Source: Escherichia coli (GTDB lineage Bacteria; Pseudomonadota; Gammaproteobacteria; Enterobacterales; Enterobacteriaceae). Taken from it: a DNA stretch of 64,000 bases. Under the pieces are notes generated by a model. That model worked only from the letters and a program-made list of their open reading frames with translations. It was not told the DNA's origin and did not search any database. The stretch lies in the NCBI RefSeq assembly GCF_003334765.1, contig NZ_QOWT01000016.1; one strand, written 5' to 3'. Of this stretch, positions 42,948 through 48,819 are shown piece by piece. The position numbers and the translations under genes were made by a program. Within the stretch, counting starts at the first letter, position 1. Each line of letters opens with the position of its first letter.

Positions 42948-44465
42948 TTATTGTTCTACGGCCATCAGACGTCGGTATTCATCCCACGCATAGAGGTCGG
43001 TCATACCGCTGATATAATCCTGCAGCAGGCGGCAACGGTAATAATATTCCCATAGCGGAAACTCAGGAGAATCTGACGGTAATTTACTGACAGCCTCGAC
43101 ATAGGCCAGCCGATGGCGCGTCGAGAGTTTGTGGAATAAGCGCGATTCAATAGGGAAACGTTTCACCCGTTCTTTTTCTACCAGTTCAGTAAAGTCTGAT
43201 AACGACAGGCTTAATAAAGGACGATAAATCTCTAATAATCCGCTAATGACCCGATAGCCCTGCAATTCAAGCTGCTCGACATCTGGATGGCTAAACACAT
43301 GTTTTACAGCGACATTTTTATATAGCTTAAGAAGATCGCTGCATTCGCTGGCATCTTCCAATAATGCATGATTAAACGTTCCGGCGAAAATCGCAGGCAG
43401 ATTATCAATAAATCGTTGTGCCGCGTAGGGTACCAGTTTATTTAGGGTGTTTACCCGTAAATACATAAAAAACTGATCTTCCGTACTGCGGCTTAAACTA
43501 TTTGAGCGTGATTTTTCCCAGGCATTTTCAACCACCAGCGAAAAGAGCGAACCTTTCTCATGCTGGCCCCACGCTTCGTGCAAATGATGATAAAGCTGCT
43601 CAACGGTAAATATTCTTTTCTCTACCGCATCTTCAAGGTCTGCCACACAATAGGAGATGTCGTCGGCAGCTTCCATAATCCACGTTAATGGAAAACGACT
43701 GTAAAGCGCCAAATTAAGTTCTTTACGCAACCGGGCAATATAGGCTTCTTCAGAAAGATAATAACCCGGCTTTTTCATTAAATAGTGATGTGTCTCAGGC
43801 GTTTCGCCACGCCACCACGCCGGACGGGTATATTTTAAAATACCGCCAACCTGTGCCCAGGTGAGATTCATCCGCATCAATGTATGCACCAGGCGAATGC
43901 CTTGTGCATTCCCCTCAAAATGACATAAGTCCTGACGAATCTTGCGCCGCAGCTCGTTAAGCGGTTCTTCCCCGTCCCGTAAACGTAGTGCCGCCACGCT
44001 GCAGCGATCGTCAGTCAGAGGCTGGCTTTCGGCATCTTCCGGGTGCAAACGTTGGCGAAACCAGTCATTTATCGCCGCTTCGCCAAAATGACCAAACGGC
44101 GGATTGCCGATATCGTGCATCAGGCATGACATCTCAACAATGCTTTCAAAGGGACCGGTCAGTTCATCCAGGCCGTATGCTTCCAGTAATTTAAGCTCTT
44201 TCAGACGGCTTAAAATTTCTTTGGCGATGTAGCGCCCCACCTGCTGGACTTCCATCGAGTGGGTAAGACGCGTGCGCACGGCGGCATTGCGCTCCAGTGG
44301 AAAAACCTGGGTCTTTTGTTGCAGACGACGAATTGCCGGAGAGTTGATGATACGCCCGCGATCGCTCTCGAAGATCCGCAGGATCTCATGTTCGGTTTTA
44401 ACGCCCTGCGGTGAACGGTAACGACGATGCCAGTTTATTTTTTTTCGGAAATCAATCTGTGCCAT
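42948..44465 (-). CDS. dgt: dGTP triphosphohydrolase
   Basis: 505-aa ORF with HD domain; recognised Dgt. Confidence 0.95.
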
Positions 44466-44548
44466 GTCCTCTCCCGCGTGAGAAATACGCTTCCCCGTAA
44501 GCGCATGGTAAACTATGCCTTCAAATCGGGCTTATCGCGAGTAAATCT

Positions 44549-45247
44549 ATGAAAATCGGCATCATTGGTGCAATGGAAGAAGAAGTTACGCTGCTGCGTG
44601 ACAAAATCGAAAACCGTCAAACTATCAGTCTCGGCGGTTGCGAAATCTATACCGGCCAACTGAATGGAACCGAGGTTGCGCTTCTGAAATCGGGCATCGG
44701 TAAAGTCGCTGCGGCGCTGGGTGCCACTTTGCTGTTGGAACACTGCAAGCCAGATGTGATTATTAACACCGGTTCTGCCGGTGGCCTGGCACCAACGTTG
44801 AAAGTGGGCGATATCGTTGTCTCGGACGAAGCACGTTATCACGACGCGGATGTCACGGCATTTGGTTATGAATACGGTCAGTTACCAGGCTGTCCGGCAG
44901 GCTTTAAAGCTGACGATAAACTGATCGCTGCCGCTGAGGCCTGCATTGCCGAACTGAATCTTAACGCTGTACGTGGCCTGATTGTTAGCGGCGACGCTTT
45001 CATCAACGGTTCTGTTGGTCTGGCGAAAATCCGCCACAACTTCCCACAGGCCATTGCTGTAGAGATGGAAGCGACGGCAATCGCCCATGTCTGCCACAAT
45101 TTCAACGTCCCGTTTGTTGTCGTACGCGCCATCTCCGACGTGGCCGATCAACAGTCTCATCTTAGCTTCGATGAGTTCCTGGCTGTTGCCGCTAAACAGT
45201 CCAGCCTGATGGTTGAGTCACTGGTGCAGAAACTTGCACATGGCTAA
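44549..45247 (+). CDS. mtnN: 5'-methylthioadenosine/S-adenosylhomocysteine nucleosidase
   Basis: 232-aa ORF starting [24 protein letters not shown]; recognised Mtn/Pfs. Confidence 0.95.
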
Positions 45248-46040
45248 GTCACTGTTCAGGGCGCTGGTCGCCCTGTCTTTTCTTGCGCCACTGTGGCTCA
45301 ACGCCGCGCCGCGCGTCATCACGCTTTCTCCCGCCAACACTGAACTTGCCTTTGCCGCCGGGATCACGCCGGTTGGGGTCAGCAGCTATTCCGACTATCC
45401 TCCACAAGCGCAAAAGATTGAGCAGGTTTCCACCTGGCAGGGGATGAATCTGGAACGCATTGTCGCGCTGAAACCCGATCTGGTGATTGCCTGGCGTGGA
45501 GGTAATGCCGAGCGGCAGGTTGACCAGCTGGCTTCGCTGGGAATAAAAGTGATGTGGGTCGATGCGACAAGCATTGAACAAATTGCCAATGCGTTACGTC
45601 AACTGGCCCCCTGGAGTCCGCAACCAGACAAGGCCGAACAAGCCGCGCAATCCCTGCTGGATCAGTACGCGCAATTGAAAGCGCAATATGCTGATAAACC
45701 TAAAAAACGTGTTTTTCTGCAATTCGGCATTAATCCGCCATTTACCAGTGGAAAAGAGTCGATTCAGAACCAGGTACTCGAAGTTTGTGGCGGAGAAAAC
45801 ATCTTTAAAGACAGCCGGGTTCCCTGGCCGCAAGTTAGCCGCGAACAGGTGTTAGCACGCTCGCCACAGGCGATTGTCATTACAGGCGGACCGGACCAAA
45901 TTCCTAAAATCAAACAATACTGGGGTGAACAGCTCAAAATTCCCGTTATTCCTCTCACGAGTGACTGGTTTGAACGTGCAAGCCCACGTATTATCCTCGC
46001 TGCACAACAGCTCTGTAATGCGCTTTCACAGGTAGATTAG
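45240..46040 (+). CDS. btuF: vitamin B12 periplasmic binding protein
   Basis: 266-aa product starting [22 protein letters not shown]; overlaps the mtn 3' end by 8 nt; the ORF-track start is 9 codons upstream. Confidence 0.9.
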
Positions 46041-46077
46041 CGCCTGACCTTTTCAGGTGCTCAGTGGGGATTGAACA

Positions 46078-46701
46078 ATGCTCGTCTATTGGCTGGATAT
46101 AGTCGGCACAGCGGTATTTGCCATCTCCGGCGTTTTGTTAGCCGGAAAATTGCGTATGGACCCTTTTGGTGTTCTGGTACTGGGCGTGGTAACCGCAGTA
46201 GGCGGCGGGACAATTCGCGACATGGCGCTGGATCACGGCCCGGTATTTTGGGTGAAAGATCCCACCGATCTGGTCGTTGCAATGGTCACCAGCATGCTGA
46301 CCATCGTGCTGGTGCGCCAGCCAAGACGCTTACCAAAATGGATGTTGCCGGTGCTGGACGCCGTTGGTCTGGCGGTGTTTGTCGGCATTGGCGTGAATAA
46401 AGCCTTTAATGCGGAAGCCGGTCCGTTAATCGCGGTTTGTATGGGCGTCATTACTGGCGTTGGCGGCGGGATCATTCGTGATGTTCTGGCCCGCGAAATC
46501 CCCATGATTTTACGTACAGAAATCTACGCAACTGCCTGTATTATCGGCGGTATTGTCCACGCTACGGCTTATTACACATTTTCCGTACCACTGGAAACAG
46601 CCAGTATGATGGGCATGGTCGTGACGCTATTGATTCGGCTGGCGGCTATTCGTTGGCATCTTAAGCTACCGACGTTTGCGCTGGATGAGAATGGGCGTTG
46701 A
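46078..46701 (+). CDS. yadS: UPF0126 inner-membrane protein YadS
   Basis: 207-aa hydrophobic ORF with an internally duplicated glycine-rich motif (VGGGTIRDMAL / GVGGGIIRDVLA). Confidence 0.9.
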   Translation: MLVYWLDIVGTAVFAISGVLLAGKLRMDPFGVLVLGVVTAVGGGTIRDMALDHGPVFWVKDPTDLVVAMVTSMLTIVLVRQPRRLPKWMLPVLDAVGLAVFVGIGVNKAFNAEAGPLIAVCMGVITGVGGGIIRDVLAREIPMILRTEIYATACIIGGIVHATAYYTFSVPLETASMMGMVVTLLIRLAAIRWHLKLPTFALDENGR

Positions 46702-46747
46702 AGAGAGAAGATGTGCCGGATAGTTTATCCGGCACATGAACAACAGA

Positions 46748-47092
46748 TTAGATACTAAAGGAAGAACCGCAACCGCAGGTGCTTTTCGCGTTCGGGTTGG
46801 TCACGATGAAACGAGAACCTTCCAGACCTTCGGTATAATCAACGGAACCGCCGACCAGATATTGCAGGCTCATCGGATCAACCACCAGGCCAACGCCCTG
46901 TTTTTCGATGGTCATATCGCCTTCGTTCACCTGATCATCAAAGGTGAAACCATACTGGAAGCCGCTGCAACCGCCACCGGTGATATACACGCGTAATTTC
47001 AGATTCGGGTTATCTTCGTCAGCGATCAGGCTTTTAACTTTGTTGGCTGCTGCGTCGGTAAACTCCAGCGGCAGTGCTACGTCATCACTCAT
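46748..47092 (-). CDS. erpA: iron-sulfur cluster insertion protein ErpA (A-type carrier)
   Basis: 114-aa product [19 protein letters not shown] with C-terminal CGCGSSF motif; the ORF-track start is 11 codons upstream. Confidence 0.95.
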
Positions 47093-47173
47093 ATTTTGCT
47101 CCAAACGACATCGGCAATTGGGCAAATTCTAACCCAATAATAATCGCCATTATCTAATACCCTGGTATTTCGT

Positions 47174-48613
<1,440 letters not shown>

Positions 48614-48819
48614 TCATACAAATAAGATGACGGCATTTTACTCGCACGTTCCATGAAAATCCTTTGCAAAGCGTAATGTTTCAAATGCACAAAACTTTTA
48701 TACTCTAAGAAATCAGGATTGCACCAGTACAAGCAGCCTGATGTTTGACGAGTATTTAACTTGTTATGAATAACATAGAATAGCAGCCATTCACTTTTTC
48801 TACGAATCAGGAACCCTCC

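Follow-up and report, generated by a model that had tools for sequence, protein, structure and literature searches.

The open reading frame at positions 46078-46701 of the window, that is, of the whole 64,000-nucleotide stretch of Escherichia coli DNA that was analysed, is yadS, and its product is the E. coli member of the prokaryotic TRIC family (named EcTRIC in PMC5477506 and PMC5401562). YadS is very probably a prokaryotic TRIC channel with an inverted-repeat pore in each protomer that, by homology, conducts monovalent cations, K+ above all. The identity of the gene, the internal duplication of the protein, its TRIC fold and the conservation of its pore and gate residues have been established in the present analysis. 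For this protein family, a channel fold with an inverted repeat and glycine-kinked helices is already known, and its description here is a re-discovery of published architecture.

Gene identity and internal duplication

The DNA of the gene is 100% identical to the annotated yadS of RefSeq E. coli genomes, and the name yadS given to it by an earlier note, which had been made from the sequence alone, is thus right. RefSeq describes the product (WP_000964221.1) as 'TRIC cation channel family protein', and the NCBIfam equivalog PRK10578 matches YadS with 438.5 bits, well above its curated cutoff of 326 bits. Moreover, a 2-kb query around yadS is likewise 100% identical to RefSeq E. coli chromosomes and was recovered from 5425 of 5426 complete genomes of the species. 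Three open reading frames overlapping yadS (46071-46400 on the plus strand, 46233-46505 and 46061-46282 on the minus strand) were rejected as alternative frames within a conserved gene, unannotated in RefSeq. The features of the gene and its product are as follows.

46078..46701, plus strand: yadS coding sequence, ATG-initiated, 207 amino acids plus stop; prokaryotic TRIC-family channel protein (EcTRIC)
46087..46311, plus strand: N-terminal repeat, residues 4-78, TM1-TM3, first three-helix bundle; copy 1 of Pfam PF03458, E=1.5e-24
46195..46221, plus strand: glycine-cluster motif AVGGGTIRD, residues 40-48, in TM2; read from the sequence
46351..46566, plus strand: C-terminal repeat, residues 92-163, TM4-TM6, second three-helix bundle, opposite in orientation to the first; copy 2 of PF03458, E=1.4e-21
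46456..46482, plus strand: glycine-cluster motif GVGGGIIRD, residues 127-135, in TM5; read from the sequence
46591..46653, plus strand: TM7, residues 172-192, extra helix beyond the repeats, with the invariant R187; helix of the model

The internal repeat of YadS is confirmed to lie far beyond chance. The two PF03458 matches are independent and strong, and both are to one 78-position Pfam model. In a Smith-Waterman alignment of residues 1-87 with residues 88-207 the score is 89; composition-preserving shuffles (n=5000) score 30.3 +/- 5.5 with a maximum of 64, and 0/5000 reach the observed value. For a profile comparison, 91 full-length homologues with 33-56% identity to YadS were picked from an exhaustive search, and the resulting N-half and C-half profiles were aligned by hhalign with a probability of 98.4% and E=5.3e-15; the alignment runs through 78 columns and takes in TM1-3 of the one half and TM4-6 of the other. 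Profile self-comparison was the check that the earlier note had set beforehand for its claim of two homologous halves, and the repeat is significant by it; the Pfam copies and the shuffles bear the claim out as well. Furthermore, invariant residues occupy equivalent positions in both halves (G43/G130, G44/G131 and R47/R134), and D48, found in 87 of the 91 homologues, pairs with the invariant D135.

These results bear directly on whether the duplication might be only apparent, an effect of the composition of hydrophobic transmembrane sequence rich in Gly and Val, with no true homology behind it. Such a reading can draw on BLASTP of the two halves as single sequences, in which 21 of 43 positions over the core are identical and the composition-adjusted E is only 0.076, a value that is marginal when taken alone. 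However, it is refuted by the two Pfam copies, the shuffle test and the profile comparison, and the equivalent invariant residues argue against it too, as does the superposition of the TRIC bundles in crystal structures (PMC5477506). Almost no credence is therefore left to it. The halves of YadS are homologous, and the VGGG(T/I)IRD motif that had been seen within a hydrophobic segment of each half is located inside a predicted transmembrane helix in both. The label 'glycine-rich' fits to a modest degree, as Gly accounts for 22 of 207 residues (10.6%), with a concentration in the two clusters.

TRIC fold, topology and gate residues

YadS matches five distinct solved prokaryotic TRIC sequences over essentially its full length in a phmmer search of the PDB. 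The solved structures to which it was likened are those of CpTRIC from Colwellia psychrerythraea (5wuf, E=2.8e-54, residues 3-204), RsTRIC from Rhodobacter sphaeroides (5h36, 9e-40), SaTRIC from Sulfolobus acidocaldarius (5wuc, 2.5e-31; also 5wud and 5wue) and SsTRIC from S. solfataricus (5h35, 3.4e-29; 5wtr, 2.1e-28). An AlphaFold2 model of the YadS monomer, for which an alignment of 91 homologues served as input, has a mean pLDDT of 96.3 and a pTM of 0.91 and contains seven long helices. In the N-terminal half of the model TM1 spans residues 2-24, TM2 29-51 and TM3 63-79; in the C-terminal half TM4 spans 89-111, TM5 116-137 and TM6 151-166.

When the model was compared with the PDB by Foldseek, prokaryotic TRIC structures were matched with TM scores of 0.85-0.95, rmsd of 1.4-2.2 A and 31-51% identity, and the TRICs of C. 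elegans and vertebrates with TM scores of about 0.60-0.62 at a probability of 1.00 and 14-21% identity. All 19 matches with a probability of 1.00 (E <= 2.1e-3), among the 50 matches listed, are TRIC structures, and the matches listed below the TRICs have a probability of 0.44 or less and TM scores of about 0.2. The prediction of topology and structure and the search for an ion-channel-like fold, both suggested by the earlier note, have yielded seven transmembrane helices and, by Foldseek, the TRIC channel fold.

The distribution of charge in the loops favours an N-out/C-in topology, with nine Lys and Arg residues inside and one outside, and the orientation of YadS from GFP tagging, as PMC5477506 cites it, agrees with this. 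As each repeat has three helices, an odd number, the two repeats are oppositely oriented in the membrane. The resemblance to inverted-repeat channels and transporters that had been noticed at the outset has therefore proved sound: by hhalign, AlphaFold2 and Foldseek, and in line with PMC5477506 and PMC5143425, the halves form a homologous three-helix inverted repeat. Taken together, full-length homology, a 3+3+1 helix plan, inverted repeats, Gly clusters and the pore and gate residues place YadS in the TRIC family.

The published work on this family describes the same plan. A bioinformatic study, Silverio and Saier 2011, is credited in PMC5477506 with predicting the seven-helix topology, the duplication of a three-helix unit and that UPF0126 and TRIC are one family. 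Prokaryotic TRIC structures were solved crystallographically in 2016-2017, two of them by a structural-genomics campaign in which YadS itself was the seed sequence. The architecture consists of two inverted three-helix bundles plus TM7 (3+3+1), and Gly kinks in TM2 and TM5 line one pore per protomer of the TRIC trimer (PMC5477506, PMC5143425).

The family (PF03458/UPF0126) is large and broadly distributed, with 7806 clusters at 50% identity in an exhaustive homologue search. Three of its members (P0132, P0136 and P0144), each of about 300 amino acids with two matched stretches, resembled three-repeat variants. In P0132 and P0136 long stretches recur exactly, and P0144 looks as if two distinct family sequences had been joined; all three are probably artefacts of assembly or gene calling and no genuine three-repeat TRICs.

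The roles of the paired Phe residues and of the Asp-Arg-Asp-Tyr hydrogen-bond lock are described in PMC5477506, PMC5143425 and PMC5401562. As judged by alignment, YadS carries all of the pore and gate residues named in these papers, and they are conserved across the family. In the phmmer alignment, F20 and F106 of SaTRIC correspond to F14 and F101 of YadS, the glycines GGG48-50 (the TM2 kink) and GGG134-136 to GGG42-44 and GGG129-131, and the C-terminal lock D99-R139-D140-Y155 to D94-R134-D135-Y150. The quasi-symmetric positions of the N-terminal lock in YadS are D7-R47-D48. Among the 91 homologues, G43, G44, R47, D94, G130, G131, R134, D135 and R187 are invariant (91/91); the counts are 80/91 for F14, 84/91 for F101, 87/91 for D48 and 90/91 for Y150, and G42 is conserved in at least 90%.

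A working mechanism for YadS may be proposed on this basis. TM1-3 and TM4-6 arose by duplication, with TM7 as an add-on. The GGG clusters would kink TM2 and TM5 in the middle of the membrane, and the kinked helices would face each other and line an hourglass pore in each protomer, with F14 and F101 as its putative hydrophobic constriction. The networks D7-R47-D48 and D94-R134-D135-Y150 may act as symmetric locks that close either end of the pore. The protein is presumed to be a homotrimer in the inner membrane, the trimer having been shown for orthologues only, and by homology each protomer would conduct monovalent cations, chiefly K+, down their electrochemical gradient.

YadS and the prokaryotic TRICs of known structure have in common a length of about 200-215 amino acids, the 3+3+1 plan, the GGG kinks of TM2 and TM5, the Phe pair and the D-R-D-Y lock. 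In the archaeal SaTRIC, however, the positions of the N-terminal lock are occupied by N13-S53-N54, whereas YadS has a full D7-R47-D48 that mirrors its C-terminal lock. The eukaryotic TRIC-A and TRIC-B (TMEM38A/B; C. elegans TRIC-B, 5egi/5eik, and vertebrate structures 6iyu-6izf) belong to the same fold family. Like YadS, they have seven transmembrane helices with three-helix repeats in inverted orientation and Gly kinks in TM2 and TM5, and they form trimers with a pore per protomer, as is presumed for YadS (PMC5143425, PMC5477506). Unlike YadS, they possess a C-terminal tail of about 60 amino acids, bind PIP2 and provide counter-current for the Ca2+ stores of the SR/ER, where they reside; the location of YadS is the bacterial inner membrane. 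Moreover, conservation of the Phe pair and of the hydrogen-bond lock network is confined to prokaryotic TRICs (PMC5477506, PMC5143425).

An analogous design is seen in aquaporin and FocA, in which two inverted three-helix units make up a pore in each subunit of an oligomer (Su et al., PMC5477506). The middle helices of these proteins, however, are broken half-helices joined by a loop, whereas those of TRICs are continuous and Gly-kinked (PMC5477506). No aquaporin or FocA chain occurs among the 50 Foldseek matches listed for the YadS model. The likeness is one of analogy and not of family membership, with no detectable match of sequence or fold among the matches listed.

Ion conduction, metabolite transport and physiological role

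Several prokaryotic TRICs have been reported to conduct K+. Kasuya et al. 2016 (PMC5143425) rescued a K+-auxotrophic E. coli with RsTRIC and SsTRIC and recorded K+ currents from RsTRIC in spheroplast patches; a monomerised mutant still conducted, which indicates one pore per subunit, and mutants of the Gly cluster in TM2 or TM5 were inactive. K+ conductance has also been reported for SsTRIC, SaTRIC and CpTRIC (PMC5477506, PMC5401562, PMC5143425). According to Ou et al. 2017 (PMC5401562), the pore is an hourglass containing sites for ions and water, and gain-of-function mutants arise at the Phe, Asp, Arg and Tyr gate residues. These authors also purified EcTRIC itself and found neutral lipids bound to it that resemble the inter-subunit lipids of SsTRIC, and they proposed homeostasis of K+ and of the membrane potential as the role of prokaryotic TRICs. 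On the strength of its orthologues, YadS itself would be expected to conduct K+.

Some names and observations point instead to a transporter or channel for small metabolites, glycine or another exported metabolite, in place of a K+ channel. The Pfam name of PF03458 is 'Glycine transporter', and homologues go under 'Glycine transporter domain-containing protein' in some sources. The bioinformatic study of 2011, as reported in PMC5401562, suggested metabolite efflux for prokaryotic TRICs. Furthermore, bound K+, Rb+ or Cs+ was sought in the SaTRIC pore and none was seen (PMC5477506). Against this stand the K+ currents and the rescue of K+ auxotrophy by orthologues (PMC5143425), and also the form of the pore, a narrow, water-filled hourglass shut by Phe side chains (PMC5477506, PMC5143425), without a substrate site of the alternating-access kind.

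The genomic context likewise argues against a metabolite as the substrate. An Rfam scan of positions 44400-47300 with E up to 1 returned no glycine riboswitch (RF00504) and a single, spurious lncRNA match, and no element was found in seven yadS homologue loci at the gathering thresholds. No glycine-metabolism gene is present among the neighbours of yadS or of the homologues examined. In the searchable literature no link between TRICs and the glycine riboswitch was found, and PMC6944388, which deals with glycine riboswitch contexts, makes no mention of the TRIC family. Metabolite transport in place of K+ conduction is thus judged quite unlikely, and a monovalent cation channel is the preferred reading of YadS.

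The earlier view that the function of the protein is not established has been overtaken at the molecular level, where YadS belongs to the TRIC channel family and its orthologues conduct K+, and it stands with regard to E. coli physiology. A 2025 study still counts yadS among the uncharacterised genes of the y-ome. Other mentions of the gene are incidental, in a list of the MazF regulon and as up-regulated by 4-octyl itaconate, and CRISPRi knockdown of yadS in Shewanella left formate tolerance unaffected. A search of the literature turned up no crystal structure of YadS, no electrophysiological recording or flux measurement on it, no phenotype of a knockout and no paper testing its role in E. 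coli. Nor was there a joint treatment of yadS with yicG, which we take to be the second E. coli UPF0126 paralogue. It is unlikely, in our estimation, that the in vivo job of YadS is something other than K+ conduction, be it the passage of small metabolites (e.g. glycine) or a btuF-coupled role specific to Enterobacterales.

Gene neighbourhood and transcription unit

The local gene order is dgt (minus), mtnN (plus), btuF (plus) and yadS (plus), followed by the convergent erpA (minus), yadW (minus), clcA (minus) and yadX (minus), and then by hemL (plus). Two features flank yadS directly.

44549..46040, plus strand: mtnN and btuF, upstream of and co-oriented with yadS; RefSeq annotation; btuF ends 37 nt before yadS
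46711..46737, no strand assigned: 12-bp perfect hairpin (GTGCCGGATA...TATCCGGCAC core) in the 46-nt gap between the convergent yadS and erpA; from folding; a terminator-like site on the minus strand

The upstream genes have raised the possibility that YadS is tied to its operon partners, either working with BtuF to take up vitamin B12 or acting in the MTA/SAH salvage to which MtnN belongs. The gene lies 37 nt downstream of btuF, and a pattern scan, which is weak evidence, found no consensus-like promoter on the plus strand between the two, which fits co-transcription. In PMC11731830 mtn-btuF-yadS is listed as one operon ('yadS btuF mtn'), and Yersinia and Edwardsiella have retained the order mtnN-btuF-yadS. 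However, what the two genera conserve is the entire stretch degP-dgt-mtnN-btuF-yadS-erpA-clcA-hemL, a pattern that has the look of plain Enterobacterales synteny. Homologues with 42-57% identity lie in unrelated contexts, next to flagellin and ThiI, a histidine kinase and a metallo-beta-lactamase fold protein, or DUF3083 and Impact genes, and yadS of Shewanella is flanked by a DUF2721 gene and an NTF2-like gene. Moreover, the TRIC family, with its 7806 clusters, is spread far beyond btuF-linked genomes.

A function bound to the operon partners is accordingly regarded as highly improbable. The conservation of the btuF/erpA neighbourhood, which had been put forward as worth checking, holds in Yersinia and Edwardsiella and is lost in more distant homologues, and thus amounts to lineage-specific synteny. 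As this synteny is confined to Enterobacterales, linkage to btuF/erpA as a functional module was rejected, and conduction of K+ by a TRIC channel is retained as the preferred reading for YadS.

Some smaller observations were made on the genes of this neighbourhood and on the homologue loci. The longest open reading frame of btuF starts with TTG at 45213, and the annotated start is the ATG at 45240, which gives an 8-nt overlap with the mtnN stop (45247); this overlap of start and stop suggests translational coupling of mtnN and btuF. In a Yersinia locus (L002), the end of the called btuF-like gene and the start of yadS share coordinate 4001. In two metagenomic or genomic loci (L006, 2720-3798, and L007, 997-2076), a TRIC homologue with 44% identity precedes a DUF3083 gene, after which comes an Impact_N/DUF1949 gene; the adjacency TRIC-DUF3083-Impact_N recurs in both, and the two loci may not be independent.

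The hairpin at 46711-46737 has a folding energy of -19.5 kcal/mol on the plus strand and -18.9 on the minus strand (z about -6.4 to -6.9), and 0/200 shuffles are as stable. A pyrimidine/T-rich tail follows the minus-strand version only. Owing to this tail, the hairpin looks like the terminator of erpA, and it possibly serves yadS too. RefSeq also annotates two very short genes on the minus strand, both below the length threshold used for listing open reading frames. The start of erpA is overlapped by yadW (47085-47150, 21 codons), yadX (48607-48654, 15 codons) is situated immediately upstream of clcA, and both may be leader or regulatory small open reading frames.
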